Source: an uncultured Acidobacteriota bacterium
Lineage (GTDB): Bacteria > Acidobacteriota > Terriglobia > Acidiferrales > UBA7541
DNA: 64,000 nt
Reading direction: 5' to 3'
Assembly: GCA_963767225.1 (NCBI GenBank)
Contig: CAVYDD010000007.1
Span: 53,887-117,886, forward strand
The position numbers and the translations under genes were made by a program. A model generated the notes under the pieces. The model was not told the DNA's origin, searched no databases, and saw only the letters and a program-made list of their open reading frames with translations. Shown here piece by piece: positions 8,603 through 28,393 of this stretch; the stretch's first letter is position 1, and each line of letters opens with the position of its first letter.

Positions 8603-9583
8603 CTAGCCGGCCGTGTTGGCGCGGGCGATCAGCAGGATTGCCAGGAAATAGAAGACGAACATGAGCGCGAGGAAGGCCATGGCGCGTTTATTGGCGCCGG
8701 CGAATTCTCTCCAGACGAAGATGCCCCAGAGGGCAGCGACCATGGGAGCGGATTGGCCGATGGAGTAGGAGATGGCGACTCCTGTGTAATTGGCGGCGAC
8801 CAGATTGAAGACGGTGCCGGTGGTCCAAATCGCGCCGCCGAGCAGCCCGAGGACGTGGCCGTTCACGGGGCCGCGGAAGAAACCGCTGAATGCGACGGCC
8901 TGGCCGACGAGCGGTTTGCGCATGAAATACAAATTCCACCACAGGCAGGAAAGTAGGGCGCCGCCGGTGAGAAATACGGCGATGCTGTAGGGGCCGAGGG
9001 TATTTCCGTGGGTGAGGGCGCGAGTGGAGAAGGGCGCCCAGAGGCCCATCAGGACGCCGGAGATTACGCAGACGAGGATGCTTTTGCGCGAGGCTTCCCG
9101 GTTGGCGCCGAGTTCGCCGTAGGCTTTGCCATCGAGGATTACGGCGATGACGGCGCAGAGGACTCCGGCGCCGAGCATCATTACGTTGCCGCGTTGCTGC
9201 TGCACGAAGCTGAGGACGGTGCCCACTACCAGGGCGATGCCGATGGCTACGGGGAAGGCAATGGCGAGGCCGGCCATGTCAATGGCGGCGACGAGCAGAA
9301 GGTTCGCGAGGTTGAAAATTATTCCAGCGAGGAGGGCCCAGCCGATGTTGGCGAGGTCGGCGGAGCGGACATTATTAAGGAAGCTGGCGGGGCCGTCGGT
9401 GCTGGAGCCCATGGTGAGGGCGTAGACCAAGGCGGCGAGGAAAATCCCGATGGCGTAGTCCCAGTAGAAAAGTTCGAAGCGGTAATTTTTTACGCCTTTG
9501 TAGGTGTTGGCCCAGGAGCCCCAACAGGCGGCGGAGACGATCATCATTAACAGGGCCGTGCCGAAGGTTGTTGGTGTGAACAT
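8603..9583 (-). CDS. GRP-family sugar uptake permease (GlcU/RbsU-like, 10-TM)
   Basis: 326 aa, entirely hydrophobic with ~10 predicted TM segments and similarity to glucose/ribose uptake proteins. Sits immediately upstream of a PfkB kinase and a nucleoside hydrolase on the same strand. Confidence 0.55.
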   Translation of the reverse strand: MFTPTTFGTALLMMIVSAACWGSWANTYKGVKNYRFELFYWDYAIGIFLAALVYALTMGSSTDGPASFLNNVRSADLANIGWALLAGIIFNLANLLLVAAIDMAGLAIAFPVAIGIALVVGTVLSFVQQQRGNVMMLGAGVLCAVIAVILDGKAYGELGANREASRKSILVCVISGVLMGLWAPFSTRALTHGNTLGPYSIAVFLTGGALLSCLWWNLYFMRKPLVGQAVAFSGFFRGPVNGHVLGLLGGAIWTTGTVFNLVAANYTGVAISYSIGQSAPMVAALWGIFVWREFAGANKRAMAFLALMFVFYFLAILLIARANTAG

Positions 9584-9637
9584 TGAGGTCCTTTGAAATG
9601 CGAATGCTGGCGCGGCTTGCTTTCGTGCGTTTCGACT

Positions 9638-10618
9638 CTAAAATGCGGCGGCGCCTTTGGGGCTTTGGTGCTTGATCAGCGCTATTACTTCATCGTGTCT
9701 GGCCATAGCGCGGGCGCCTATTTTTGTGCAGCAGAGCGCGGCGCAGGCGTTTGCGAACAGGCCTACTTTCTGGCAATCCCAGCCTTGCAGCAGAGCGTAC
9801 GAAAGGCCGCCCATGAAGGCGTCGCCCGCGCCGGTGGTGTCCACTACGTCCACCTTAAAGGCGGGGACTCTGGCGACTTCTTTGGGGGTGGCGATGAGGC
9901 AGCCGTCGGCGCCGAGGGTGATGGCGACAACTGTTGGACCCATGCGCAGTAGAGCGGTGGCGACTTTTTCGTAATCGGCTTCGCCGGTTAATTCGCGGGC
10001 GGCAGCTTTGCAGGGCTTTAGCACGTCCGCGAGGCGGAGAGCGGTGCAAAGTTCTTCCTGGGTGCCGAGATTGGATTCGGCATAGAAGCTGGGGGAAACG
10101 TCTAGGTCGAAGATGACGCGGACTTTGGCGTCGTGAGCTACCTGCATCGCCTCTTTTACGGGAGCGATGGCGAGTTGCGACGCTTCGGTGTGGAAATGTT
10201 GGGCTGCCTGAATGTGCGGCGCGAAGCGATGCAGGACTTGATAGACGGAAATTTTTCCGGTGACGTTGGGAAACATGTAGATGCAGCGCTCGCCGGAGAT
10301 GTCCACCGGAATCCAGGTGAGCGCGGAGTATTCGCCCTTCACAACTTCAATGCCGGAGAGGTCCATGTGATCTTCCGCGAAGGCTTTCTGGATAGTGCGG
10401 CCGTTTTCGTCGTCGCCGATGAGGCCGAGCCAGCCGGTGCTGATGCCGAGGCGCGCGACTTGCGTGAGATTGTTGGCGGTGACGCCGCCGGCGTGAATTT
10501 CCATGCGCGTGGCGTTGATTTTTTCTTCGGGGCCGAGCAGGCGCGGGACGATGGCGAAATAATCCACGGTGCAGCTGCCGATTCCGACGACGTCCACTTT
10601 TGCTGTTAGGTCTGACAT
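9638..10618 (-). CDS. PfkB-family carbohydrate kinase (ribokinase-like)
   Basis: N-terminal GIGSCTVDY and C-terminal DTTGAGDAF anion-hole motif, ~326 aa, in the ribokinase-like fold family. Confidence 0.85.
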   Translation of the reverse strand: MSDLTAKVDVVGIGSCTVDYFAIVPRLLGPEEKINATRMEIHAGGVTANNLTQVARLGISTGWLGLIGDDENGRTIQKAFAEDHMDLSGIEVVKGEYSALTWIPVDISGERCIYMFPNVTGKISVYQVLHRFAPHIQAAQHFHTEASQLAIAPVKEAMQVAHDAKVRVIFDLDVSPSFYAESNLGTQEELCTALRLADVLKPCKAAARELTGEADYEKVATALLRMGPTVVAITLGADGCLIATPKEVARVPAFKVDVVDTTGAGDAFMGGLSYALLQGWDCQKVGLFANACAALCCTKIGARAMARHDEVIALIKHQSPKGAAAF

Positions 10619-10632
10619 GGGCTCGATTCCGG

Positions 10633-11748
10633 CTATTTTGCCGCCGTTTGCGGATGCGTGGCGGGCGGCTGCGCCATCAGGTCAATGAACATCTTATAGA
10701 ATTTTTCTTTGTTTAGTTCTTCGGGGATATTGACGAGCTGCTCGCCCAGGCCGGGTTGCGCGCCGCCGGTCCACACCAGCACGTTGCCGTAGCCTGCGGT
10801 GTGCGAAATGTCTATGTCCATGAAATATTGCGTTTGCTGGGTGATGATGGCGGGGTCGAGCCATCCGGCGACGGCGAGTTCGTCCCACATGAATTCTTCG
10901 TCGGCATATTTTGCGAGGTATTGGGAGGCGGGGCTGGGTGATTTTGCGATTGCGGCGATCAGTTCTTTGGTCATGCGGGTCTTCACGGAAATATCCACGG
11001 TGGTGATGGTGATTTTGTGCCAGGGCGCGGTGAGGACGATGTGGACGGCTTCGGGATCCCACCAGAAATTAAATTCGCGGCGATTTTCGGCGAGCCAGTC
11101 TTTGGGGACGATGGGGGCGATGCTGCCGCCCATTACCACGAGCTCTTGCGCTAGCTCGGAGACTTGCGGATCGAGGCTGACGGCTTGCGCGATGTCGGTC
11201 ATGGGACCGCCGGCATAAATGGTGACTTCGTGCGGATATTTGTGGACCATGCGGATGATGAAATGCGCGGCGTCTTCTTTTTGCGCTTGCAGAGTTGGGT
11301 TGCCTTCGGCGAGATCGGGAACTTCAAAGGGCAGGTGATATTTTCCGCGCAGGCCGTCGCCGAGATTCATGCCGGGGCGGTGGCCGTTCCACGCGCCTTG
11401 ATAGTGGACCGTGCCGTATAGTTTTTCCCAACGCTCGATCATATCCATGCGATTGATCAGCGGGTAGACCGCGCCGGGATAGACGGGGATGTCCTGGTGG
11501 CCTGTGAGTTCCAGCATGCGCAGGGTGTGGGCAACTTCTTCGTCGCGCCACATATCGCCGCTGACTACGGTGATGCCGAGCGTTTCCACGTTGGGAGATT
11601 GCAGGAACATGAGGATGGATTGCTGGTCGGTGGTGGCGGCGCCGCGTGCGTCCTGGTCAATGATAACTTTTCGCTTGGTTTGCGCGGTGGCGGCGGAAGC
11701 CAGCGCGATGCAGAAGACGGTGAACAGCAGGATTCTGTTCGGGCCCAT
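10633..11748 (-). CDS. inosine-uridine-preferring nucleoside hydrolase family protein, secreted
   Basis: ATG at 11748 with RBS AAGGGGA. Signal peptide MGPNRILLFTVFCIALASAATA, then IIDQDARGAATTDQ (the DxDxxxDD calcium/ribose-binding motif of IU-NH). Confidence 0.8.
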   Translation of the reverse strand: MGPNRILLFTVFCIALASAATAQTKRKVIIDQDARGAATTDQQSILMFLQSPNVETLGITVVSGDMWRDEEVAHTLRMLELTGHQDIPVYPGAVYPLINRMDMIERWEKLYGTVHYQGAWNGHRPGMNLGDGLRGKYHLPFEVPDLAEGNPTLQAQKEDAAHFIIRMVHKYPHEVTIYAGGPMTDIAQAVSLDPQVSELAQELVVMGGSIAPIVPKDWLAENRREFNFWWDPEAVHIVLTAPWHKITITTVDISVKTRMTKELIAAIAKSPSPASQYLAKYADEEFMWDELAVAGWLDPAIITQQTQYFMDIDISHTAGYGNVLVWTGGAQPGLGEQLVNIPEELNKEKFYKMFIDLMAQPPATHPQTAAK

Positions 11749-11955
11749 GGCGATAATTGATCCCCTTGTTGTGGTTCGGCTGAAAACTATTTGCGGCTGG
11801 TTTCCCTTGGTCGTGTTCCGGTGGCAGGACACCTGTGGCACCAACGGAGCTTATAGTTCTCCGCGGAGAATGAGTCAAGAGAAAACGGCGTTTTTGCTGG
11901 AACGAAGGGTAGTGCCAAAACAGGTGACGTCAATAGCGGATGTTATAATCCGCGG

Positions 11956-13326
11956 ATGTTTGCCGGGTTCAGAGCGTGGTGGAATTATGCGCAGCCGCTG
12001 GTTGGCGTGATGTTGTGTCTCGGATTTGCCGCGCACGCGCCGGTGAGTGTGGCGCAGACTGCCGGGCAATCGGCGGCGACTTTGATTTCACAGGCACGGG
12101 CTTCCGCGGCGGCGGGGCAATTTGCGGAGGCGATCGCGGATTATCACGAAGCGCTGCGGATCGCGCCGCGCAATTTGAATGCGGAAATTGGATTGGCGCA
12201 GGCGTATCGCGGGGTGCGCAATTTTGATTCGGCCAAGCAGCTGCTGGCAGAGGCGCGCCGCGAGCATCCGAAAAGCGCGCTGCCGCTTGCGATGCTGGGC
12301 GACATGGATTTGGAACTGCAGACGTACGACGCGGCGATCGGGCACTTGACGGCCGCGTTGGCGCTTGAGCCTGCGAACGTGGACGCGCGGAATCGGCTGG
12401 CGGTTGCTTACAAAGCGAAGGGCGGCGCGGCAGACAAGGCGGCCGCACTCGAGCAGGTCGCCCAGGTGCTGGCGCGCAATCCGCAGAACGCACTGGCACT
12501 TTACACGCGGGCGGAAATTTATGCCGACCAGAACCGCGATGCGCTGGCGCTGCCGGATGCGGAAAAAGTTGTGGAGTTGCAGCCGCAGAATCCGCGCGGG
12601 CGAGCGCTGCTGGGAAAGATTCTGGTGCGCGCGCCTGCTGGTGCTGCACCGGAGGAAATTAAACGGCGCTGCGGGCGGGCGGTGCTGGCGCTGGAGCCGC
12701 TGGTGAACGGAGCTTTGGCGGCCGCGGCCGATCCGGAGACGCTATTTTTGTTGTCGCGGGCATATCGCTGTGCGGGACAGGATGAGAAGGCCGCGACCAC
12801 CTTAGAGGAATTCGAGCAGGCTTCGCGGAACGATCGGACTTCGAAGGAAAATCAGACACAGGCGAAACACCTGGTGCAGCAGGCCGATGAGTTGGCGATG
12901 AAGAACGATTTCGCGGGGTCGCTCGCAGTGCTGCAGCAGGCGATTGCTATGGACGCGACTTATCCAGGGGCTTACTCGCAGTTGGCGAAACTTTATTATT
13001 CGGCAGGGGACATTCAGAAGGCGAGCGATGCGATTGGGCAGGCTTTGCAGCGGGCGCCGTATCATCCGGAATATCTTTATGTGCAAGGGAGAATTTTTGA
13101 GAAGCAGGGGCGAATAGATGAAGCGCTTGGGGTTTTTCAGCGGACCGTGCTGGTAAATCCGAAAGAGTCCGATGCTTATTTTGAGCTGGGGGCGATTTAC
13201 CAGCAGCGCGGGGAGCTTGCGAAGGCGAGGGCCGCTTACGCAAAGGCCGTCGAGATTTCGCCGGACGATCCTGATTACAAGCGGGCGCTGGCGGCGTTGC
13301 GTGGCAGCGCGGCCGCGACGCCGTAA
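11956..13326 (+). CDS. tetratricopeptide (TPR) repeat protein, secreted
   Basis: Signal peptide followed by multiple 34-residue TPR repeats (AxxxYxxALxxxPxN... pattern) across 456 aa. Confidence 0.8.
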   Translation: MFAGFRAWWNYAQPLVGVMLCLGFAAHAPVSVAQTAGQSAATLISQARASAAAGQFAEAIADYHEALRIAPRNLNAEIGLAQAYRGVRNFDSAKQLLAEARREHPKSALPLAMLGDMDLELQTYDAAIGHLTAALALEPANVDARNRLAVAYKAKGGAADKAAALEQVAQVLARNPQNALALYTRAEIYADQNRDALALPDAEKVVELQPQNPRGRALLGKILVRAPAGAAPEEIKRRCGRAVLALEPLVNGALAAAADPETLFLLSRAYRCAGQDEKAATTLEEFEQASRNDRTSKENQTQAKHLVQQADELAMKNDFAGSLAVLQQAIAMDATYPGAYSQLAKLYYSAGDIQKASDAIGQALQRAPYHPEYLYVQGRIFEKQGRIDEALGVFQRTVLVNPKESDAYFELGAIYQQRGELAKARAAYAKAVEISPDDPDYKRALAALRGSAAATP

Positions 13327-13392
13327 GCTTGGGTTTGCTGCGCGACGCTTTCGTCTGGTGGATGTTTTAGTATCTGATAGAATCCGTGACCT

Positions 13393-16683: not shown

Positions 16684-16733
16684 GGAAGTGGTACAGGAAG
16701 AATAGCATAAATGGACCTTGTGAATGGACCGCT

Positions 16734-17219
16734 ATGGATTTAGGTTTAAGGCTGCGGGAGGAAGCGATGAGAGCTTACGGAATGCTGGGGCGAAGCATTG
16801 TTGCTGCGCTCTGCGTGATGGCGGCGGGATTTCTGGAGTGGGATCAAGTGCGCTCCGATACGCAGCATGCGGAGAGGAGTGAGCGAGGCCGAATTGTCCT
16901 GGAGCGGGCGCTGCCGAAAATGGATGGCGAGCATCTGAAGGTGACATTGGTTGAGGTGAATTACGGGCCGGGCGAATCGTCGGCGGCGCATAGCCATCCT
17001 TGTCCGGTGATTGGTTACGTGGCGGCGGGGTCGCTGCGAACGCAAGTGCGCGGCGAGAAGGAAGCGGTATACAAGGCGGGTGAAAGTTTTTACGAGGCGG
17101 CGAATGGCGTGCATGTGGTGTCTGCGAATGCGAGCCAGACGGAACCGGCGAAACTGATCGCTTATTTTGTTTGCGATCATGACGCACCGTTGAGTGTGAC
17201 GGCGCCGGGAGGGAAGTGA
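16734..17219 (+). CDS. cupin-domain protein (secreted/signal-anchored)
   Basis: The ATG at 16734 avoids an 85-nt overlap with the MocR gene. N-terminal hydrophobic segment, then a cupin core (LVEVNYGPGESSAAHSHPCPVIGYVAAGSLRTQVRGE...YEAANGVHVV). Confidence 0.6.
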   Translation: MDLGLRLREEAMRAYGMLGRSIVAALCVMAAGFLEWDQVRSDTQHAERSERGRIVLERALPKMDGEHLKVTLVEVNYGPGESSAAHSHPCPVIGYVAAGSLRTQVRGEKEAVYKAGESFYEAANGVHVVSANASQTEPAKLIAYFVCDHDAPLSVTAPGGK

Positions 17220-17221
17220 TC

Positions 17222-17698
17222 ATGCGTGAGCGATCGTTTGATGCCGACGATATGGCGCGCCGAGCCGCCGGGACGACGCGCGCGGTGAATGGGGTGCGGT
17301 GGGGAACTTTGTATGCGCGCTGGGCGCTGGGCGCGGCTTTTTTGTCGGGGATCGCCGATCGCTTCGGGTGGTACACGGGGCGGAACGTGGGGTACGGAAA
17401 CTTCGCGGGGTTTGTGGCTTACACGGCGAAGGTTAATTCGTTCATGCCGGCGTTGACGATTCCGTTTCTGGCGTGGGCGGCGACGGCTGCGGAATTCTTT
17501 CTGGGCATCTTGTTAATACTTGGCATCTGGCCGCGTTGGGTGGCGTTTGCGAGCGCAGCGCTGCTGGTGCTGTTTGGGATTGCGATGGCGATTTCATTTG
17601 GAGTCAAGTCGCCGATGGATTATTCAGTGTTTTCGGCGTCGGCGGCAGCGGTTTTGCTCGGGCTCTACGCGGATCGCGGGGCTTTGGCGCGAGCGTGA
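17222..17698 (+). CDS. DoxX-family membrane protein
   Basis: ATG at 17222 with GGAGGG RBS, and its start overlaps the cupin stop codon. Four predicted TM helices, similar to DoxX/MauE. Confidence 0.65.
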   Translation: MRERSFDADDMARRAAGTTRAVNGVRWGTLYARWALGAAFLSGIADRFGWYTGRNVGYGNFAGFVAYTAKVNSFMPALTIPFLAWAATAAEFFLGILLILGIWPRWVAFASAALLVLFGIAMAISFGVKSPMDYSVFSASAAAVLLGLYADRGALARA

Positions 17699-17742
17699 GT
17701 GGCGTGATCTAAAATATTGTGAGGTTGGCGCAAGGAGGATTT

Positions 17743-18213
17743 ATGGAAACGCGATTTAATTTTATGAAGGCGGCGCCTGGAGTGTACGAAGCAATGCGCG
17801 GGCCGGAGAAATATTTGCAGGGGTGCGGGTTGGAGCAGGGCCTGCTGCACTTGATCAAGCTGCGAGCTTCGCAGGTGAATGGCTGCGCTTACTGCCTGGA
17901 CATGCACTGGAAGGATTTGCAGGCGAGCGGAGAGAAGGAGCAGCGGATGTATTCGCTCGATGCGTGGCGGGAATGCCCGTATTACACGGAGCGGGAACGG
18001 GCGGCGCTGGCATGGACGGAAGCGGTGACTCTGATTACGAATGGTCACGCGCCGGATGCCGTCTACCAGGAAGCGCGCGCATATTTTAGCGAGAAGGAAA
18101 TCTGCGACCTGACTTTGGCGGTGGCCGCGATCAATGCGTGGAATCGGCTCGCGATTTCTTCGCGGACGGCTCCGGGCGGATATCATGCGCAGCCAGTGAA
18201 GGCGGCACACTGA
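17743..18213 (+). CDS. carboxymuconolactone decarboxylase family protein (AhpD-like alkylhydroperoxidase core)
   Basis: Strong RBS AAGGAGGA seven nt upstream of ATG 17743. Contains the NGCAYCLDMH CxxC(H) AhpD-core motif. Confidence 0.8.
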   Translation: METRFNFMKAAPGVYEAMRGPEKYLQGCGLEQGLLHLIKLRASQVNGCAYCLDMHWKDLQASGEKEQRMYSLDAWRECPYYTERERAALAWTEAVTLITNGHAPDAVYQEARAYFSEKEICDLTLAVAAINAWNRLAISSRTAPGGYHAQPVKAAH

Positions 18214-18348
18214 CGCAGATTGAAGTGAGCGGATAATTTCCCACGAGGGGCGCACAGCATTCGCTGCGCGATGAACATTGGCCATGCGGGTTTTTTGTTT
18301 GGTGCACGGGTGTGTTCGAGCAGGCAGGTAAATTCAAAGGAGGAAAAT

Positions 18349-18810
18349 ATGCGACGAATTACACGGATGGCGGTGGGAATTTTTGTGTTGGGAATGCTGC
18401 TGGGCCCGGGGACGGCTTTCGGCCAGGATGAGCGAAGTCAAATTCTGAAGGTGCGGGAAAGTGTATGGCGGGCATGGTTTGCGAACGACTCGAAGGCGCT
18501 GGAAAGGCTGGTGCCGCCAGACACGATCGTGATCAGTTCCGACGAAGCGAAGTGGAAGAACCAGGCGGACGTATTGCGAACCGCGGCAGAGTTTCAGGCA
18601 GACGGCGGAAAACTGATCCGGCTGGAATTCCCGCGGACGGAGATCCAGCGATTCGGGGAGGTGGCGATTATCTGGACTTCGTACTTGGTCGAGACGGAAG
18701 AAAACGGGAAACGCGCGGTGGTTTCCGGACGGGCCACGGAGATTTTTGTGCGGCGCAATGGGGAGTGGGTGAATCCGGGCTGGCACACGGATTCGTTCAA
18801 GCCGGAATAG
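18349..18810 (+). CDS. NTF2-like/SnoaL-like (DUF4440-type) secreted protein
   Basis: RBS AGGAGGAAAA before ATG 18349. Signal peptide MRRITRMAVGIFVLGMLLGPGTAFGQ, then the WRAWFANDSKALERLV ... IWTSYLVETE ... RRNGEWV pattern of NTF2-like fold proteins. Confidence 0.6.
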   Translation: MRRITRMAVGIFVLGMLLGPGTAFGQDERSQILKVRESVWRAWFANDSKALERLVPPDTIVISSDEAKWKNQADVLRTAAEFQADGGKLIRLEFPRTEIQRFGEVAIIWTSYLVETEENGKRAVVSGRATEIFVRRNGEWVNPGWHTDSFKPE

Positions 18811-19411
18811 CGGACGTTGCCTTAAAAGCGCGCGCGGCGGGCGCTGGAGGTGATGTGCAATGCGGCACGGTGTACTGTATTGCGCATGTTTGAAAAGTGG
18901 CGAGAGGCATAGTCGAGGATGCCGCGCAACAGCAGCGGAAATTCACAATGGGAGGCCCTCTACATGCATCGTGCACATCGTTATGCCGCTTCGCTGTTTT
19001 TAACCGCCGCTCTGGCCGCGCCGCGGTCAATGATGGCTGCGCCTGTACCGCAAGGAGCGGGCGTGCCGGTACGAGTCTAGCACTCCAGCCCCACGATTAT
19101 CACAACCGGGACGACCACGAGCGCCACAGATGGGGAGTGTACCTGTCGGACAACCACCGGCACGAGCACGAGTACTCGCGCGCCAATCATAAGGAGCCGA
19201 GGGATTACTGGAATTGGCGGCACGGTCATCGGGATTAATCGGCGGTAGTCGCAGCTTTTCGGATGGGGAAATGCCCCGCGACAGGGGCGTCCGGTCTGTC
19301 GCGTTGCGGATCGGACGCCATCTCAGGCGGGTGACTTCGGTGAAGAAGTGAACTTCGGTGTTGTGGTTCCCGCCGTTGAGAGTCTGTGTCAAAACACAAA
19401 GATCAGCACTT

Positions 19412-19428
19412 CAGCGGCTAAAGTTGCG
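19412..19428. repeat. copy of short REP-like motif CAGCGGCTAAAG(TT)GCG, 3' of methyltransferase gene
   Basis: The 12-mer CAGCGGCTAAAG is identical to the copies at 35645-35656 and 41612-41623. Confidence 0.4.
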
Positions 19429-19455
19429 TCGCGGAGGTGGCGGAGTCAAGGCGAG

Positions 19456-20253
19456 TCATGACGCCAGACCGTTGCTGCGGGGATAGCCGATGAGGTAGGC
19501 GATGGGGAATTCGCTGGTGAGGTTGACGCGTTCTCCCATTTCCCAGTGGTATTCGGTGGCGGATAGCTTTGCGATAATTTCGCGGAGTTCGTGCGGGCGG
19601 TAGCTGCGCAGGCAGGAGACGACTCCATCGAACAGTAGCACGAACGGAATTATGGGAAGGACGTAGGTGCAGGGCAAGCGCGACCAGCGGAAGGGACGGA
19701 TCCAGGGAGTCAACAGGAAGGGAAGAAGGGCCCAAAGAAACATGAGCGCGATGGCGGAGGGTGCGCGACGCGTGACTTCGAATATGCCGATGCCTTGATT
19801 TGCGTCTACGGCATTCTGAAGGATGGCGCGGGCTTCTTCGGGTTGAAAGTGATGGAAGGAGGTGAACATGGTGCGGAAGCCGTGCAGTTCGTGGGGGACG
19901 TCGGTGGCGTCCACCGGAGCGGAATGAAACGAGATGTGATTTTGCGATGCGGCGCTGGCGGATTGGAATGCGCCGAGGTTTGGATATTTATCGGTGAGGA
20001 GAATTCGCAGGGAGGCGTGATGGTTGCCGTGCAGGCGGCGAGAAAGTTTCAGCCAGGGGCCTCCGCCACCGGAACACATATCAATGATGCTGCTGTTGCG
20101 CGTTACGTCGAGCGAGGTTTGCAGCAGCGGGGCGACGGGCGCATAGGCACCGAAGAAATTCATAGCGGATTGCAGCGTGTCAGTGATTTGGTCGCGGAGG
20201 AATTTGGGGAACCATGATTGTTCGTGGAGTTCGATGAGATGCACGCGTCGCAT
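19456..20253 (-). CDS. class I SAM-dependent methyltransferase with C-terminal hydrophobic segment
   Basis: Motif I IIDMCSGGGGPW and overall Rossmann-fold methyltransferase pattern. Start is either ATG 20253 or TTG 20298. Family not identified. Confidence 0.6.
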   Translation of the reverse strand: MRRVHLIELHEQSWFPKFLRDQITDTLQSAMNFFGAYAPVAPLLQTSLDVTRNSSIIDMCSGGGGPWLKLSRRLHGNHHASLRILLTDKYPNLGAFQSASAASQNHISFHSAPVDATDVPHELHGFRTMFTSFHHFQPEEARAILQNAVDANQGIGIFEVTRRAPSAIALMFLWALLPFLLTPWIRPFRWSRLPCTYVLPIIPFVLLFDGVVSCLRSYRPHELREIIAKLSATEYHWEMGERVNLTSEFPIAYLIGYPRSNGLAS

Positions 20254-20367
20254 GGGAATTGGTTTGGTAGTATGCGGCAACTTTGGCGGAGGTGGCAAAT
20301 GGATTGGGCGGGGTGGAATGCGCGTAGCCAGAAGTGCCCTTCTGCCGCGGGCAGGGCTGTGCCACGG

Positions 20368-21483
20368 TTAGTACATGATGGTGCGAGTCAGGTGATGGGG
20401 CCAGTCGGTGGTGTGGTAGTGGGTCCATATGCGGGCGTCAATTTGGGGGATGATGATCTGGGCGCCGGAGGAGCGGAGCTTGTTGATTTCTTCCGTGAGC
20501 AGGGCAGTAGCGTAAATGCAGTGGGCGCGGATTTCGATTTCCTGGGTGCTGTCGCGGGGAATTAGCTGATGCGTGTTGATCGCTTTTTCCAGGGCTGGCG
20601 AATAGGAAGTGATGCCCATGAGGCGCAGACCTACGGGAACGATGTAATCGGCGAAGGCTGTCATGGAGTGAATGTCTTCGATCTGAAATTTTCCGGTTGT
20701 ATGCAGGCTGGTGTAGAGGAACCAGAGGCCGAGCTGCGGAAGTTTGTAGAGCTTGATCTGGTGGCCGTCGTAGAGGCTGACGTCGTTGAAGCGCGGGAAT
20801 TCGACTACCAGGCGGTCCACCATGCCGTTGCCATGATCGTAGAGGCGGGGCGAGCAACTGCGGATGAAATTGTGGAAGCGGCCGGCGTATTTCGCCGCGA
20901 GCACGGCGCCGGTCTGGCGCCAGAGCTCCGTTTTTTCATCGAGCATGGGGACTTCGATATTGCCTGCGAAAATCTTTTCCATTTGCGGGCGAGTTAGCTG
21001 CGCGAGGTAGTGGCCATCGAGAATGGGGATGCCCTGATCCATGGCACGCTTGATGCAGGCGAATTCGGCTTCGGAATCGGACCAGTGCTGGCCAGCGTAG
21101 TCCACTTGAAATTTTACATGGGTGGTGAAATCGGTGAAGGCGGTGTCTACCACGTCCGCGACCATGATGAAATCAATGATTTCGTCGGGGTTGTTCTGGC
21201 CGACGCCGAGGGGCAGGTGGTATTCGGGCATGGGGAGTTCTTCGTAGGCCATCCAGCTGGCGACTTCGACTAATTTTTCGACGTTGCTGTGGACGTCGCG
21301 CGAATTTTCGATTACCGGGGGAAGGCTATCGAGAACGGGACTGCCGATGGGGTTGGGCCAGCGCACCTTTTCACGTGATGCAGTGGAGGCGGCAGCTGGC
21401 CGGAGGCTTTCGCCTCCGGCCGCCGCCGCAATCATGGAGCTGGTTGCGGTTTGTAAAAACTGCCTACGTCCCAGGGGCCCCAA
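20368..21483 (-). CDS. Qng1/DUF2419 queuosine-salvage family protein homolog with twin-arginine (Tat) signal peptide
   Basis: Strong collinear similarity to the human QNG1/DUF2419 family across the protein (ENSRDV..., ...DTAFTDF..., MDQGIPILDGHYLAQLT..., LVVEFPRFNDVSLYDGHQIKLYK..., FADYIVPVGLRLMGITSYSPALE...QEIEIRAHCIYATALL). N-terminus GPLGRRQFLQTATSSMIAAAAGG is a Tat motif. Start set at TTG 21483, 6 nt after the TonB-dependent receptor (TBDR) stop, because the longer ORF (to 21612) would overlap the TBDR gene. Confidence 0.75.
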   Translation of the reverse strand: MGPLGRRQFLQTATSSMIAAAAGGESLRPAAASTASREKVRWPNPIGSPVLDSLPPVIENSRDVHSNVEKLVEVASWMAYEELPMPEYHLPLGVGQNNPDEIIDFIMVADVVDTAFTDFTTHVKFQVDYAGQHWSDSEAEFACIKRAMDQGIPILDGHYLAQLTRPQMEKIFAGNIEVPMLDEKTELWRQTGAVLAAKYAGRFHNFIRSCSPRLYDHGNGMVDRLVVEFPRFNDVSLYDGHQIKLYKLPQLGLWFLYTSLHTTGKFQIEDIHSMTAFADYIVPVGLRLMGITSYSPALEKAINTHQLIPRDSTQEIEIRAHCIYATALLTEEINKLRSSGAQIIIPQIDARIWTHYHTTDWPHHLTRTIMY

Positions 21484-21488
21484 GATCG

Positions 21489-24400
21489 TCAGAATACGAA
21501 CTTGACGCCTGCTTGGAACGCGAACGGAGTGCTGCCCGGCGCAATCTGTGTGATCGCGCGGAAGCCGTTTTGCCCGATGCGTGGCATGGTGGCGGCGGTG
21601 AGCGGGTCGCAAGTCTGTCCGGCTGGGCCCGTCACCGAACCAGTACCGCCAACCGGTGGGGCAGGCGTGAAGTTCGGAGTGCAGCCGGTCAGTGAGATCG
21701 TGGCCGTATTTGGGTTGTTCGGATTCGAGTAGAGATTACCGTGATTGGTGAGGTTGAAGAAATCACCGGACAATATCACGTTCAAGCGATCATGTACGTG
21801 GAGGGTCTTTTGTAACCGCGCGTCCCATTCGAAATAACTCGGCTGGTCAAATGGGTAACGCCCCAAGAGAACCGTCTTACCGCCGGCGGTAGTGAAGGTC
21901 GGTCGGTCGTTATTGTGAGAGAGGTCGGAAACCTCGTCGCCGTTGAGGTCTTGGAGGATGTAGAGCGGAAATGGCACGCCGGAGTGAGCGATTACGCTAG
22001 AGCTGACTTCAAAGCCCCAGGGCAACTCGTACACGCCAGCGGCCTTGAATTGATTGGTGATGTCTAGACCGTTGCGGCCGTAGTCAATCGCCAGGTTGAT
22101 GGGATCCTGCTGCCCGAAATACGTATCGGTATCGCGCTCGCTGGCGGCGTTGTCTTTGTTCTGCGACCAGATGTAATTGGCGAACAACTGGAAATGATTA
22201 GAGAAGCGCTTGGTGAGGTTAACAACCAGCGACTGATAGTTGCCATGACTAAAACTGGCTGTTTCATTGTTTGAAGTGGGCAACGTCGGGTCGAGCTGCG
22301 TGGGAAATTGGGTCTTCAGCACGCCGCCCTGGTAAACAGCAGTGTCTTGGAGGATCGATCGCCCGAACGGGTCGGTTCCAGTGATGATGTAATTCCGCTG
22401 CCAGGCTTCCTCTGAGTCGTAACCGCCGGTCCGCAGATGCGTGGAGTGCACGTAGGAGTAAGTAGCCGTCAACTGCAGGTTATACGGCAGCGCTTGCTCG
22501 ATCCCGCCTGTAAAGCTGGAGACGCGCGGATTCTGAAACGCGGGATCGATGTATCCGCCTCCCGATGTGGAGGCCGGGCATCCATAAATCGTGCCGCTAA
22601 CCGGATCAGGCGTAGTGCAAAGCTGGTTGACGGCTAGACTGGTCGAGTTGGGGTTGAGATAGGGAAAGCCAGCCAGCCCGTTGTTCGGAGCCGCGCAGCC
22701 ACCGATGCAGTGGGTGAGGTTACCAGCCCCGGCAGTCGGGAGGAATATCCCAACGGTCAGCGCGTAATAGAGACCCCAAGCAGCGCGGACAACCGTTGGA
22801 TGAGACCCTTGTCTAACGTTCCAGGCCATGCCGATACGCGGGCCCCATTGATTAAAGTCACCGGGAACGCGCTGTGGCACGGGGGCCTCATGCGATCCTG
22901 CACCCTGACCGACCAGGACGGTGCTTCCCCACATCGGAGTCTGCGGCTGCGGGTTCCACGTGCCGTCCCAGCGGAGTCCGTAAGTCACGGTGAGGTTTCG
23001 GGTCAACTGCCATTTATCCTGCCAGTAGAGGCCCAGGTCGGTCTGGTAATTGGGGAAAAGAGTTGTAGCCGGACCCAAGAACGAGAGCGGTTTTCCATTC
23101 AGAGCGACGCCTTGACTGAGAGCTCCTGCACCCGCCGCTCCGGATTGAAAGCTACCAATATCGAAGAAATCGTACTCACCGGCACCCCAGCCGACGAAGG
23201 AATCTTTGCGATCTTCGAAGGTGACCGAATCTCCGCCGAATTTCATATCGTGTTTGCCAAACGAATAATTGAAGTTGTCCGCCGCTTCGAACTTACCGTC
23301 CTGGTTGTTAATGGGCAGGTAGTAGCGTTGGCCGATGCCATAATTAAAGGCGCTGCCGATGGCCAAGTTCGGGAAGCTGGAATCGGAAATCGAAAGTCCG
23401 GGCGAATCACTGTTAGCGTGGCGCTCGCGAACCTCATCTGAAAGGCTGATGCGAACTTCGTTCACCTTGCGGCCCAGCACGCTGTTCAAGCCGAAAACAA
23501 TGGCTCCGCCTTTGTTGGTGAAGTCCTCGGTATTGTCGAAGGCCTGAGGAATTTCATTCTGACCCTGAGCGCCGCTAAACCCGTTGGTATGGTTACGGGT
23601 GAAGTAGCTGCGCACGCTGAAGTGGTTTGCGGGGCTGAATTGATAGTCGTAGTGTCCCAGGATCGTGAACAGATTCTGGAACTGGTTGCTGGCGCCTTGG
23701 AATCCGGCTATCGAGGACTTGCCATAGCAGTCCATCAGCACACTTTCCCCGACAGTCGGGGAGGTTCCGCAGCCTGGCGGCAACGTAGTGCCGGCCGAAA
23801 CAAGGCTGGGCAGCGGTACTTGGCCTGGCGTAACCCCATTGCCTGGATTGCAAAAACCCGGGACGCAGTTCGCAAATACGGGCCCCGTAATCAGTGGGAG
23901 CTCTGCGAGGCAGGCCGCTTGTCCTGCACCCGGCGAACAGAACTGAGTAACCAGCGGGCCGTTCTGCAATTGAGCATCAGTTGCGATGAACAGGAATTGG
24001 CGGTCTTTGTGAATGGGGAAACCGACGGAACCGCCGAACTGGTTTTGGGTTGCGATGTTGGGTGGTTCGCCGACAGCGTCATTCGCCGTGAAATCGCTGC
24101 CGCGATAGTAGTCGTGCGCTTCGCCGTGCCACTGGTTGGTGCCGGATTTGGTGACCACGTTGACCAAACCACCGGTCGCGCGTCCGAATTCCGGAGCAAA
24201 GCCGTTGGTGACCACCTGGAATTCCTGCACGGCCTCGAGAGGAACCGTGAAATTCTTGGTTTCGAGCGATCCGAAAATTTCACCGAAGTAGTTGTTAAAG
24301 GTGTCCTGCCCGTCAACGACGATGCCGAGGTAGTCGCTTTGCTGGCCGCCCAGGCGGATGCCGCCACGCAAGCCGGGAACGACTTGCGCCGAGGAACTCA

Positions 24401-24901
24401 GTTGCGCCAAGTCACGATAATCGCGGCCGGAGAGCGGGAGGGTTTCCAGGTCTTTTTGGTTGATGACCTGGTTGATGCCGGCGGTGGAGGTGTCGATGGG
24501 TCCAGCCTCCAAGGCGGACACCGTGACGGTTTGCGTCTGACCCTTAACGGGGAGGGTGATGTCGAGAGCAAGACTGGCGCCAATGTCCACAACCAGGTCC
24601 GTAACAATGGTAGAGGCGAAGCCTTCTGCCTCTGCCTGGACCTTGTACGTGCCCGGCAGTAACTGAGCAAAATCGTACAAGCCGCTGACGTCGGTGGTGA
24701 GTTCGCGCTTATAGCCGGTGGAAGGATTGGAGATGGTTACCTTGGCGCCCGCCACGATGGAGTGCGAGGTATCATAAACGAAGCCGCGGATTTCGCCGCG
24801 CTCGACGGATTGCGCAGGCGCGCCGGGAGCAGCGCAGAGAAGACTCGCGAGCGAAAAGACAACGGCCACTGCTGCCAGAAACACATTCTTCACCATTTTC
24901 A
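21489..24901 (-). CDS. TonB-dependent outer-membrane receptor with N-terminal carboxypeptidase-regulatory-like domain (Acidobacteria type)
   Basis: Start at MKMVKNV (ATG 24901) with RBS AGGGAGAG. Signal peptide, CarbopepD_reg-like region (GFVYDTSHSIVAGAKVTISNPSTGYKRELTTDVSGLYDF...PGTYKV), plug region, long beta-barrel, and C-terminal ...AGVKFVF. Confidence 0.85.
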
Positions 24902-24981
24902 TTGTTACTCTCCCTCTGGGTGTGGAGCTATCGATCGCGAGATTTGATTGGCCCGAACGAGCGAACGTTTTGTTTTTCATT

Positions 24982-26127
24982 TTATTTACCCGCCAGACGC
25001 GAATTCAGGAGCTGTAGAAATTTGTCAGCGTTGACGCCGGTGCAGACCTGGACGTTGGGCTCAACGTGGTCCACCCCCTCGATAATGTAGCGATTGCCGT
25101 GCAGCACGTTGCGTTCGACGCTGTCGTGGCGATTGGCGACGGTCTCGCCGCGAGTAAACTCACCGCGAGATTCGACGTCCACGTGCATCGCTTGCGTCGA
25201 GACGATGGATGGATCGACCGCAGTGCCGACGGCAAGCGGGTCGTACATCGGCGAACCTCCGCCCGCACCGTATTTGGCTTCCTGACCGATCAGGAAAGTG
25301 AGGACCTTTACGGCGAAGTCGTTTTCGGGGCCGTGGGTTTTCGCAAGCTGATCGAGATGGGCCTGATCGAACAGAGTTTTGTCGCCGACATCGAGACCGA
25401 CCATCGTTAAGCGCCAGCCGGCCTGGAAGACGATCTGCGCGGCTTCGGGATCGTTGTAGATGTTGGCTTCGGCGGAGGCGTTGACGTTGCCACCGGAAAT
25501 CGAGCCGCCCATGATCACGACTTCCTTCACCAGCGGAACAATGGAGGGGTCCTTCAACAGAGCGAGGGCGATATTGGTGAGCGGGCCGACCGGCACCAGG
25601 GTGATCTCGTGCGGCGACTGGTGAATCATTTGAATGATAAGGTCGGGACCGAAGCGCGGATCGGCTTTGCATTTGCTGGCGGGCAGCTCCACGTTCGCCA
25701 GGCCGTTCGCGCCGTGCCAGAGTTCGGCGGTGATCAATTTCTGAAACAGCGGATGCTGGGCACCGCCGGCGATGGCGATGTCGCAGCGATTGGCGAGCGA
25801 TGCAAGCTTCAGAGCGTTTTCCAGGCCTTGCTGCGCGGTCACATTGCCGGGGACGACGGTGAGAGCGCGCACATCCAGTTCCGGCGAATTCAGGGCGAGG
25901 AGAATGGCGAGCGCGTCGTCGGTTCCGGGGTCGGTATCAATGATAACTTTTTTGGGAGCTGCGGGTGGATTCGCAGCGGCAGAGCGTGCATTTTCAGCCG
26001 CGCGCGTGGCGGGAGCGCCACTGAAGGTGGCGGCAGCTACGACGAGCACTGTGAACGCAGCAAAGACCCCGCCATGCGATGCTGCGACGCGCGTGGGAGT
26101 GTTTGTCCGCGTGACGGCTGATCGCAA
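24982..26127 (-). CDS. inosine-uridine-preferring nucleoside hydrolase family protein, secreted
   Basis: Classic VIIDTDPGTDDALAILLAL N-terminal motif, preceded by a signal peptide (MRSAVTRTN...VFAAFTVLVVAAATFSGAPA). Probable TTG start at 26127; the ORF track allows up to 26277. Confidence 0.8.
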   Translation of the reverse strand: MRSAVTRTNTPTRVAASHGGVFAAFTVLVVAAATFSGAPATRAAENARSAAANPPAAPKKVIIDTDPGTDDALAILLALNSPELDVRALTVVPGNVTAQQGLENALKLASLANRCDIAIAGGAQHPLFQKLITAELWHGANGLANVELPASKCKADPRFGPDLIIQMIHQSPHEITLVPVGPLTNIALALLKDPSIVPLVKEVVIMGGSISGGNVNASAEANIYNDPEAAQIVFQAGWRLTMVGLDVGDKTLFDQAHLDQLAKTHGPENDFAVKVLTFLIGQEAKYGAGGGSPMYDPLAVGTAVDPSIVSTQAMHVDVESRGEFTRGETVANRHDSVERNVLHGNRYIIEGVDHVEPNVQVCTGVNADKFLQLLNSRLAGK

Positions 26128-26494
26128 TTTCTTACGCGCACCACGAGAGCGGAGCGAAAATTCTGCGCTCACAAAGTGCACGAACTGCGGACTAATTATG
26201 GGAATCACTTCCGGACAAGGGCCCCCCAGCCCAAAGAATGGAAGCAGGCTATCCTTGGGTACGCGTGGAGTCAACACGAAACTGATTGCGAGCGAAGGTT
26301 TTCCACAGACCTCGAATGCGTTCCATAAAAGAACAGCGCTGCAGGAGATCGGCGAAAAGCATTACAGGAATGTGAACGAGTTGGCGATGAGTTGCTACCC
26401 TCGCGGAGAGATTCAGAGTCAAACCTGGGGAAGGCGCCGTAACGGCGCGTGACGTGGTACGGGGATTGGGTGTGCTGTTAGAATCTGTTCGGCA

Positions 26495-28393
26495 ATGAGA
26501 CAACAACGAAAACTTCTTCGGGCGCTCCCGCTGATTTCTATTTCTATCTTTGTTATGGCGACTGCGGATGTGTCCGGAGCGTTGCTGGGACCATCGGCGC
26601 GGGCGGCATATCAAAAGATGATAGAGCCACACGAGCAGCAGGCTGCGCATCCGCCCGCGCATGGGGAAACCGCGGCGGCGGAACCAGACGACACGGTGAA
26701 GCTGCGCCACCGCAGCGAGATCAGCAATCCTTATCATGTGGAATTTCGCGACGTGACCAGCGCGGCAGGAATTCATTTTCATCACGAGCGCGCGTCGTCG
26801 CCGCAGCGGCTGTACCCGGAGACGATGGGAGCTGGGGTCGGGTGGATTGATTACAACCAGGACGGATATCTGGACGCGATTTTTGTGAACAGCGGTTACA
26901 CGCCGTATTATCGCCCGCTGGTGCCGCCGCAGCCGGCGCTGTATCGCAACAATCGCGATGGAACGTTTACGGACGTGACCGAACAGAGCAAGATCCGCAG
27001 CGACGGGACATTTTATTTCGGCGTGGCTGTGGGCGATTACGATAACGACGGGTTTCCAGACATTTATATGACCGGTTACCGGCATTCGGTGCTGCTGCAC
27101 AACAACGGCGACGGAACGTTTACGGATGTGACCGCGAAGGCCGGAGTGGGCGACGAGGGAAACTGGGGCACGGCCGCGGGATGGTTCGATTACGATCACG
27201 ACGGCAAGCTGGATCTGCTGGTGACGAATTACGTGCAGTACGACGTGGACCATCCGGTGCTGTGCGGTGATGTACGTCCGGGCTTCACGGGCGTTCCGCA
27301 GACCAGCGCGTACTGCCATCCGGATAGTTTTCACGGGAGTTCGGCGAAGCTGTATCACAACAATGGCGATGGGACGTTTACGGACGTCACCGAGAAAGCA
27401 GGGTTGCTGAACACGGATGGGAAAAGTCTGGCGGTGGTGCTGGCAGATCTGAACGGAGACGGTTGGACTGATATCTTTATTGCGAACGACACACAGCGGA
27501 ACTTTTTGTACCTCAATAATGGTGACGGCACGTTTCGTGACGCGACTTTTAAATCGGGCGCGGGATTCAGCGAAGATGGGCGTTCGGAAGCGGGAATGAG
27601 CGCCGACGCAGGGGACGTGATGAACAACGGGCTGATGTATCTGTTCGTGAGCCACCTGGATTTCGAGCTAAATCGCATGTACCGGAATAATGGGGATGGG
27701 ACGTTCACGGATTACACTGTTGCCTCGGGGATCGGGCAGACGAATATTTTGCGGAGCGCGTTCGGCGCGCGATTTTTCGATTTTGATAATGATGGCTGGC
27801 GGGACCTGCTGGTGATCAACGGACATATTTTGGACAACATTCCGCTGTATCACCCGGAAGTGAAGTACGAAGAAGAAAAGATGCTGTACCGCAATCGCGG
27901 CGACGGGAATTTCGTGGATGCTACACGAACTGAGGGGGCGGATTTTCGCAAGCCACGCGTGGGACGAGGTCTCGCGGTAGGAGATTACGACAACGACGGG
28001 TGGCAGGATTTTCTGGTGAGCAATAATGGGGAGGATGCGCAGCTCTTCCGCAATGAGGGCGGAAGTTCTCCCGCGGCGCAGGAGAATCATTGGATCGCGG
28101 TGCGATTGATTGGCGTGAAATCGAATCGCGACGGCATCGGAGCTTCGTTGAAGTTGACGGCGGGAGATTTGAAGAGCTACGACCAGGCGAAGGGTGGAAT
28201 GAGTTATTGCTCGGCGCAGGATCCGCGAATTTATTTTGGCCTGGGGAAACACGAGAAGGTGGATTCGATTTTGATTCGGTGGCCTAGCGGGTACGTGCAG
28301 GAGCTGAAGGACATTCCTGCGGATATGATCGTTACCGTAACGGAAGGCGTAGACGCGAAAGCTGTGAAGTACAGACCCCCGCCGCAGAGATAG
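26495..28393 (+). CDS. ASPIC/UnbV domain protein with FG-GAP/VCBS repeats (CRTAC1 family), secreted
   Basis: 632 aa with signal peptide, eight or more DxDGDGxxD FG-GAP-type repeats, and the C-terminal UnbV_ASPIC signature (GVKSNRDGIGASLKLTAGD...IRWPSGYVQEL). Confidence 0.85.
   Translation: MRQQRKLLRALPLISISIFVMATADVSGALLGPSARAAYQKMIEPHEQQAAHPPAHGETAAAEPDDTVKLRHRSEISNPYHVEFRDVTSAAGIHFHHERASSPQRLYPETMGAGVGWIDYNQDGYLDAIFVNSGYTPYYRPLVPPQPALYRNNRDGTFTDVTEQSKIRSDGTFYFGVAVGDYDNDGFPDIYMTGYRHSVLLHNNGDGTFTDVTAKAGVGDEGNWGTAAGWFDYDHDGKLDLLVTNYVQYDVDHPVLCGDVRPGFTGVPQTSAYCHPDSFHGSSAKLYHNNGDGTFTDVTEKAGLLNTDGKSLAVVLADLNGDGWTDIFIANDTQRNFLYLNNGDGTFRDATFKSGAGFSEDGRSEAGMSADAGDVMNNGLMYLFVSHLDFELNRMYRNNGDGTFTDYTVASGIGQTNILRSAFGARFFDFDNDGWRDLLVINGHILDNIPLYHPEVKYEEEKMLYRNRGDGNFVDATRTEGADFRKPRVGRGLAVGDYDNDGWQDFLVSNNGEDAQLFRNEGGSSPAAQENHWIAVRLIGVKSNRDGIGASLKLTAGDLKSYDQAKGGMSYCSAQDPRIYFGLGKHEKVDSILIRWPSGYVQELKDIPADMIVTVTEGVDAKAVKYRPPPQR

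Follow-up and report, generated by a model that had tools for sequence, protein, structure and literature searches.

We analysed a 64,000-nt stretch of DNA (hereafter the window) from an uncultured Acidobacteriota bacterium (GTDB lineage Terriglobia; Acidiferrales; UBA7541; GenBank assembly GCA_963767225.1, contig CAVYDD010000007.1, positions 53,887 to 117,886 of the forward strand). Our subject is a trio of co-directional minus-strand genes, which we read as part of a system that would scavenge nucleosides outside the cytoplasm. The first gene encodes a nucleoside hydrolase of the IU type that bears a Sec-type export signal, called NH1 here (24982..26127; PF01156 IU_nuc_hydro, E = 6e–91, 305.6 bits); the second, an Oar-type TonB-dependent outer-membrane receptor (21489..24902; PF25183 OMP_b-brl_4, E = 1.8e–84; CarboxypepD_reg, E = 4e–19; Plug, E = 0.009); the third, a divergent N-glycosidase of the Q_salvage/DUF2419 family with a twin-arginine translocation (Tat) signal (20368..21483; PF10343, E = 1.3e–54). 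The original prediction had named these genes and their families, and in the profile check that followed all three domain calls were significant. Its gene positions also stood, except that the receptor starts at ATG 24902 rather than 24901, behind a GGGAGAG ribosome-binding site, that the hydrolase–receptor gap is 79 nt and not 81 nt, and that the Q_salvage TTG start (21483) follows the receptor stop (21491–21489) by 5 nt and not 6 nt. In the window and its relatives the receptor and Q_salvage genes are 5 nt apart or overlap, and the trio is probably co-transcribed.

The conserved locus is larger than the trio, which makes up half of it; the other half lies at 8603–11748 on the same strand. 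This second half comprises NH3, a second exported and divergent nucleoside hydrolase (10633..11748; PF01156, E = 6e–54, 184 bits; signal peptide MGPNRILLFTVFCIALASAATAQ), a PfkB-family ribokinase-like sugar kinase that lacks a signal peptide and is assigned to the cytoplasm (9638..10618; PF00294, E = 5e–55), and a UPS/DMT-type inner-membrane permease with profile matches to Ureide_permease, Sugar_transport and RhaT/GlcU-like families (8603..9583). The permease and the ribokinase-like kinase would supply the downstream steps that were missing from the scheme first proposed for the trio. For synteny, one genome per species was scanned; 347 genomes encode a Q_salvage relative, and the best 80 loci were analysed, nearly all from genomes labelled Acidobacteriota/Terriglobia, mainly 'Candidatus Acidiferrales', Terriglobales and Sulfotelmatobacter. 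A hydrolase gene lies within 10 kb of Q_salvage in 77/80 loci and an NH1 orthologue directly upstream of it in 72/80, while a receptor orthologue stands between the two in 49/80, plus one fragmented case; PfkB is present in 60/80 loci and UPS in 49/80. The loci follow three recurrent layouts: type A, that of the window; type B, hydrolase–UPS–Q_salvage with a divergent PfkB operon; and type C, PfkB–UPS–hydrolase–Q_salvage–hydrolase. One relative, whose Q_salvage protein is 77% identical to that of the window, has the order FG-GAP/ASPIC (divergent), hydrolase, receptor, Q_salvage, hydrolase, hydrolase, PfkB and ureide-permease-type transporter. The clustering is not due to chance, the hydrolase–(receptor)–Q_salvage order being syntenic across dozens of species. 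The invariant core is an exported hydrolase plus an exported Q_salvage protein, with a receptor or a permease slotted between them. Thus the co-conservation claimed for the trio was confirmed for the hydrolase/Q_salvage adjacency and has to be narrowed for the receptor, found in only about 60% of loci.

Membership of the third protein in its family is not in doubt: PF10343 matches it with 186 bits against a 25-bit cut-off, over model positions 5–285 of 285, and the structure of StQng1 (7UK3) is matched at E = 1.4e–46. Its N-terminus reads MGPLG-RRQFLQ-TATSSMIAAAAGG-ESLRPAAAS, that is, an RR motif, a moderately hydrophobic h-region and an AxA-type site; the whole signal is MGPLGRRQFLQTATSSMIAAAAGG, and the mature domain runs from about residue 45. 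The motif hinges on TTG 21483, as the next ATG, at 21432, drops it. RRxFL occurs in the first 50 residues of 87 of the 120 best database homologues (67–93% identical), and the others of the 120 begin at an internal Met of the h-region, so that the entries without RRxFL can be put down to truncated start calls. When copies were extracted stop to stop from the 80 genomes, 98 of 102 carried RRxFL 5' of GSPVL, the conserved sequence with which the domain starts; the other four are truncated or situated at contig ends. The residues around the motif diverge freely while the motif itself persists, and for many homologues an ATG preceded by a Shine-Dalgarno sequence can be recognised 5' of the RR, for example L071:9980, GGAGGAGGACACTCA-ATG-MKFMNPTRRDLLRG. 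One homologue is labelled by PF10518 and another carries a TAT-signal annotation. Judged from these sequences, the Tat signal of the Q_salvage protein is conserved across the clade, and the twin-arginine N-terminus that had been claimed for the Qng1 homolog is upheld.

Export appears to be the rule for the hydrolytic enzymes of the locus, all of which bear export signals. NH1 carries the calcium/ribose motif DTDPGTDD, preceded by a hydrophobic segment with AxA-like sites; its translation may begin at TTG 26127 or at an in-frame GTG further 5', and all plausible starts retain the hydrophobic signal. The same layout, a hydrophobic N-terminal segment and an AxA-type site before the catalytic motif, is found in 71/71 orthologues of NH1, 48/48 of NH2 and 64/64 of NH3, which bears out the Sec signal proposed for the nucleoside hydrolase. 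NH1 is RihA/RihC/UriH-like, scoring under the equivalog cut-offs, and in the PDB it comes closest to the Leishmania and Crithidia IU-NH enzymes and to RihA. NH3 has the variant motif DQDARG...TDQQ and PDB relatives at 1e–19 only. To the same superfamily as NH1 belongs QueK of Clostridioides difficile, an IU-NH-family queuosine hydrolase that can release queuine (cited in PMC11130926). QueK is cytoplasmic and partnered by QueL, a radical-SAM lyase, and by an ECF transporter, whereas NH1 is exported. The closest characterised relatives of NH1 are general IU-NH/RihA enzymes, and we set it beside QueK by description only.

Much of what can be said about substrate comes from the active site of the Q_salvage protein, whose residues were mapped by phmmer and two MAFFT alignments onto the structure-defined residues of StQng1/QNG1 (PMC9881137). 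In Qng1, D231 is the nucleophile, F75 and Y232 stack on the ribose and the carboxylate of the C-terminal Tyr completes the active site (PMC9881137). These residues are all in place: StQng1 D231, K199, Y232 and F75 correspond to D279, K247, Y280 and F116 of the window protein, and the C-terminal Tyr, E267 and H316 to Y371 (its C-terminus), E315 and H364. With rare exceptions, this core is unchanged in all 70 first copies and all 28 paralogues. Tags placed on the C-terminus inactivate Qng1. D69 is kept as well. In Qng1, D298, W302 and position 203 enclose the 7-deazaguanine ring on both sides and recognise its 2-amino-6-oxo edge (PMC9881137); of these, D298 and W302 are retained and position 203 is aliphatic. 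The Q_salvage-fold N-glycosidase is probably active.

The remainder of the pocket looks different. The D69–N72–D207 relay of Qng1 draws a proton from the secondary amine of queuosine, its cyclopentenediol side-chain pocket consists of W48, Y93, W94 and W299 with P46 and H53, and the 5'-phosphate is held by R80, K233 and Q306 (PMC9881137). Clade-wide, the relay is altered (N72 to D in 70/70 first copies, D207 to F/M/L), as is the side-chain pocket (W48 to Y/F, H53 to G, Y93 to S, W94 to D/E, W299 to A), where only P46 is retained; among the phosphate ligands K233 becomes I, Q306 becomes H and R80 changes conservatively to K. In the window protein W48/H53/Y93/W94/W299 read Y/G/S/E/A and D207 is F. 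By alignment, human and flatworm QNG1 retain the StQng1 signature, the human enzyme keeping D, N and D of the relay, so the altered positions do discriminate. The claim that the locus serves queuosine salvage specifically is weakened at this point and not supported in the form proposed: residues that in StQng1 and human QNG1 serve the side chain and the proton relay, and the phosphate ligands K233 and Q306, have been replaced. The protein does not look like a Qng1 orthologue in substrate terms. It is best seen not as a straightforward queuosine-5'-phosphate glycosylase and, as a prediction, as an N-ribohydrolase of the periplasm that has acquired a new function and acts on guanine-like bases, which may be 7-deazaguanine or other modified bases poorly handled by IU-type hydrolases. 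It shares with Qng1/QNG1 of S. thermophilus and human (PDB 7UK3, 7U91, 7UGK) the Pfam family and, by sequence, an HhH-glycosylase-like fold; those enzymes are cytoplasmic, whereas the window protein is Tat-signalled, and its clade differs from them further in its tandem paralogues and its catabolic-looking locus. The nearest relatives outside the clade (44–53% identity) are mostly without an N-terminal extension.

Tandem Q_salvage arrays of two to 4–5 copies exist in 14 of the 80 genomes (e.g. L018, L019, L022, L026 at about 10000–14600, and eight further loci), and intact copies carry their own RR signal. Read at StQng1 positions 48, 53, 69, 72, 80, 93, 94, 207, 233, 298, 299 and 306, the paralogues fall into three pocket classes, YGDDKS(E/D)FIDAH, (L/M/F)GT(D/N)KSDGIDAH and YGNDKSDFINEH; one paralogue class changes the reader of the base edge itself (D298 to N, W299 to E). 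These three signatures point to a diversified enzyme family and not to a dedicated queuosine enzyme. A Q_salvage gene can also be found alone: that of L002 (16937–18436) has neither hydrolase nor receptor beside it; some 6 kb away there are two genes for PTPS (QueD-like) proteins and one for GTP cyclohydrolase I, a context that may hint at a link with 7-deazaguanine or folate metabolism.

The signal peptide of the receptor is clear; the protein also has a CarboxypepD_reg domain, a weakly matched plug, an 820-residue OMP_b-brl_4 barrel and the C-terminus ...KFVF; its plug region matches FepA-type/siderophore receptors in PDB at 1e–5. With both the PF25183 barrel and CarboxypepD_reg significant, its designation as an Acidobacteria-type TonB-dependent receptor can be kept. 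Among close relatives (L003–L016, L034, L052, L059) receptor identity to the window is bimodal, either 84–90% or 52–63%, while the flanking NH1 and Q_salvage proteins of the same genomes are 85–92% identical to those of the window. The pattern suggests that the receptor, in an otherwise fixed locus, has undergone allelic replacement or diversifying selection.

A member of this family of loci has already been used in an experiment. In a search for transporters in qng1 neighbourhoods, a ureide permease from an 'Acidobacteriota bacterium' (A0A2V9U0M9) was tested and found to import preQ0 and preQ1 in E. coli, preQ1 at 5 nM; queuosine (Q) was not used and queuine (q) only at very high concentration, which the authors had not expected (Epigenomes 2024, PMC11130926). 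We found that the published cloning primers match locus L071 exactly (QIAH01000214.1). The proteins of the published locus (A0A2V9UA40, A0A2V9U0M9 and A0A2V9U3C8) are direct orthologues of NH1, UPS and Q_salvage of the window, to which those of L071 are 74%, 72% and 69% identical, respectively, so that the window permease has an experimentally tested preQ0/preQ1 importer as its counterpart. The gene order differs: in the published locus it is hydrolase–UPS–Q_salvage with the receptor in a divergent operon, whereas in the window the receptor lies between hydrolase and Q_salvage and UPS is 11 kb off. Table S3 of that paper lists two IU hydrolases, a CarboxypepD_reg protein, PfkB and DeoC around the tested gene; its text is silent on the receptor, TonB, export and pocket changes, and treats the enzyme as a cytoplasmic Qng1 (PMC11130926). 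The 'DUF2419 Ac' forward primer starts on the ATG codon of the open reading frame that includes the Tat signal (L071 9980–11089), and the enzyme of the Q-feeding assay hence carried the export signal. As the cloned enzyme bore a Tat signal, the assay is confounded as a test of Q in the cytoplasm, and the negative Q result cannot be used as evidence about the permease.

In our reading, to which we give a probability of roughly 60%, the locus is a rus-like extracytoplasmic scavenging system for nucleosides and ribose that has recruited a neofunctionalised Qng1-family N-glycosidase. The Oar-type receptor would carry nucleosides, be they plain or modified, or small nucleotides through the outer membrane. 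In the periplasm, at least two Sec-exported IU hydrolases and at least one Tat-exported Q_salvage N-glycosidase would split them into base and ribose; the UPS/DMT permease would take up the products, ribose and/or bases, and the cytoplasmic ribokinase-like PfkB would phosphorylate the ribose. Gene content, export signals, synteny and residue substitutions are the observations on which this scheme is built, and from them we infer substrates, the direction of transport and expression as an operon. Bulk scavenging is favoured because of the many hydrolytic paralogues and the kinase, while a 7-deazaguanine micronutrient role retains some plausibility because of the measured preference of the permease and the ancestry of the fold; the two are compatible with each other. 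The proposal of an extracytoplasmic nucleoside route resembling a polysaccharide utilization locus (PUL) therefore appears sound, given the export signals, the co-conservation and the downstream permease and kinase.

A close functional analogue is the ribose utilisation system (rus PUL) of Bacteroides thetaiotaomicron (BT2802-09), in which RusNH has a signal peptide and appears periplasmic, together with SusC/D, two ribokinases and a permease (bioRxiv 10.1101/574913). Both systems combine in one locus an outer-membrane TonB-dependent transporter, a signal-peptide IU-family hydrolase, ribokinase(s) and a permease; on the acidobacterial side, PfkB, UPS and NH1/NH3 are syntenic in 49–60/80 genomes. 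The enzyme content of rus-family loci also varies between species (bioRxiv 10.1101/574913). The differences are considerable. Rus, a system of Bacteroidota, has a SusC/SusD pair, whereas the locus in Acidobacteriota has an Oar-type receptor and no SusD-like gene among the scanned open reading frames; rus loci contain RusR or a LacI regulator, and none was found in the window locus; rus has no Q_salvage-family enzyme, while window-type loci have 1–5 Tat-exported paralogues and 2–5 hydrolases. It had been stated that no locus linking a TonB-dependent receptor to such salvage was described. This can stand in part: rus comes close in function and the receptor is already listed in Table S3 of PMC11130926, but receptor and export passed without comment there. 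In the literature searches made we found no TonB-dependent nucleoside importer outside Bacteroides rus, no paper joining queuosine salvage with Tat, periplasm or TonB, and nothing on acidobacterial nucleoside loci.

Several points weigh against the scavenging reading. The receptor is accessory and not core, being missing from about 40% of loci. The best NCBIfam model for PfkB, the ribokinase TIGR02152, scores 154 bits, under its 300-bit cut-off. The family of the permease is ambiguous, as by profile it is sugar-symporter-like, yet its orthologue moved preQ0 and preQ1 in E. coli. Signal peptides were assigned by motif and hydrophobicity and not by SignalP or TatP. The AlphaFold model of the Q_salvage protein has a pLDDT of 64 with poor active-site segments, because its input alignment consisted of close relatives only, and with a model of this quality the pocket was mapped by sequence alignment alone. 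Finally, canonical Qng1 spares GMP, AMP, CMP and UMP, so that a general purine activity would need a real change of specificity.

The strongest competing explanation is the one first proposed, a dedicated salvage of queuosine and other 7-deazaguanines as micronutrients. The receptor would import trace queuosine, its nucleotides or related 7-deazaguanosines, the Tat-exported Qng1 homologue and a QueK-like hydrolase would free queuine or preQ1/preQ0 in the periplasm, and UPS would import the base for tRNA modification. Such a role is consistent with Q_salvage membership, with the intact catalytic core and with the retention of D298 and W302 as readers of the 2-amino-6-oxo edge. IU-type enzymes rely on N7 to hydrolyse purines, so that 7-deazapurines plausibly call for an enzyme of their own; the acidic residue at position 94 could bind an aminomethyl group. 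The IU family does include a queuosine hydrolase, QueK (PMC11130926), and the orthologous UPS works with preQ1 at nanomolar concentration (PMC11130926). On the other hand, the Qng1 residues of the side-chain pocket, of the proton relay and, with K233 and Q306, of the phosphate pocket have given way to others, and up to 4–5 paralogues, 2–5 hydrolases and a ribokinase seem more than a trace micronutrient would require. The large open reading frames of the 64-kb window include neither tgt nor que genes, and in the conserved block upstream of NH1 (described below) neither a preQ1 riboswitch nor any other Rfam element was found at the gathering threshold or at E ≤ 1. Feeding of Q gave no Q-tRNA with the DUF2419 protein and UPS of this clade, a result confounded by the Tat signal as explained above. 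As the sole purpose of the locus, we consider salvage of queuosine or other 7-deazaguanines rather unlikely.

It is a good deal less probable that the receptor works outward. In Myxococcus, Oar is reported to be needed for secretion of the protease PopC (PMC6434023); similarly, the receptor might release the hydrolases to the surface or the medium, with products diffusing in. In its favour, the receptor shares the CarboxypepD_reg and large-barrel architecture of Oar-type transporters, a likeness by architecture, and enzymes and receptor are translationally coupled. However, the roughly 40% of loci with enzymes and no receptor speak against it, and secretion by a TonB-dependent transporter is a single documented case while import is the family default. 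That the Tat-like motif is untranslated, with a cytoplasmic enzyme starting at ATG 21432 and an incidental receptor next to it, is hardly credible: the TTG in the window has no obvious Shine-Dalgarno sequence, about a quarter of database entries are called from an internal Met and the Pfam and NCBIfam Tat-signal models are silent on the window protein, but the motif is kept at the protein level despite divergent flanks, many copies have a well-placed ATG and Shine-Dalgarno 5' of it, two homologues are labelled as Tat substrates, and an internal-Met start would yield a truncated hydrophobic stub.

Upstream of NH1 on the minus strand lies a conserved non-coding block of about 160 nt (26178..26335), nearly invariant in 16 close relatives and far above its flanks; that it is non-coding follows from 1-nt indels among the relatives. 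It contains the palindrome GTTCTTTTATGGAAC and the half-palindrome GGAAAnnTTTCG, a –35-like TTGACT (26274–26269), a 17-nt spacer, TAGCCT (26251–26246) and a G-rich leader with the invariant stretch GGGGTGGG. By nhmmer the block is matched 5' of NH1 in 36 loci, and TTGAC[T/A]-N17/18-TAGCCT, preceded by GGAAAnnTTTCG, occurs in about 44 loci. Loci with the element at this position include L003–L016, L021–L035, L038–L050 and L069. The half-palindrome presumably resembles operators of the LacI/RbsR type, and the block is probably the promoter and operator of the locus, with a transcription start predicted near 26240. A riboswitch or structured leader was considered and rejected: RNAalifold gave no consensus pairs, and single-sequence folds had z of –1.4 to +0.9 against shuffles. 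A consensus scan for terminators and promoters over 19000–26600 returned nothing above shuffles.

The trio is parted from UPS, PfkB and NH3 by a cassette of about 7 kb (13393–20298) present in the closest relatives only, with genes for DUF885, a MocR-type GntR/aminotransferase regulator, cupin, DoxX, CMD/AhpD-like, DUF4440 and methyltransferase-like proteins; elsewhere this position is occupied by additional Q_salvage and hydrolase genes. The methyltransferase-like gene (class I, lineage-specific; 19456..20253, minus strand; Methyltransf_25, E = 0.0027, a weak match) lies directly 3' of Q_salvage on the same strand in the 15 closest relatives, at 83% amino acid identity, and may be co-transcribed with it; it is outside the widely conserved locus. 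On the opposite strand to the locus stands a TPR-repeat protein with a hydrophobic N-terminus (11956..13326, plus strand; Pfam TPR families), conserved at 48–81% in type-A loci. The public gene call of a '799-aa nucleoside hydrolase' and a '102-aa ORF' (orf102) at L001 12323–15067 was discarded as antisense artefacts, the first 450 residues of this '799-aa IU_nuc_hydro' and the small reading frame being an antisense translation of the conserved TPR gene. Divergent to NH1, a protein with FG-GAP/ASPIC (UnbV) repeats by Pfam (26495..28393, plus strand) is syntenic in all type-A genomes, 68–92% conserved and in the same position; a second FG-GAP/UnbV_ASPIC protein, TPR-fused, lies outside the trio (3057–6749, minus strand). 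GC skew is positive in all 2-kb bins of the window and cumulative skew climbs monotonically, which places the window on one replichore without a skew switch.

To our knowledge, Qng1/DUF2419 proteins have so far been understood as cytoplasmic enzymes with a single job, the release of queuine from queuosine 5'-phosphate. An exported, tandem-multiplied and pocket-remodelled clade in hundreds of species of soil Acidobacteriota implies a second, extracytoplasmic life of the family. The automatic annotation 'queuosine salvage' is probably wrong or incomplete here, as the clade is exported, remodelled and wired to an importer, hydrolases, a ribokinase and a permease. Going further, and only tentatively, the Qng1 fold might have given rise in Acidobacteria to Tat-exported periplasmic N-glycosidases of three or more pocket classes. 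Supplied by a dedicated TonB-dependent receptor, these enzymes would cleave modified or 7-deazaguanine nucleosides, such as queuosine and preQ-ribosides, that resist ordinary hydrolases. If true, it would be the first salvage route for queuosine-family micronutrients that leads through the outer membrane and operates outside the cytoplasm, and it would explain why the neighbouring permease imports preQ0 and preQ1 and not queuine. The receptor is a candidate TonB-dependent nucleoside receptor, and the locus suggests how abundant soil oligotrophs may harvest ribose and bases from the breakdown products of environmental RNA.

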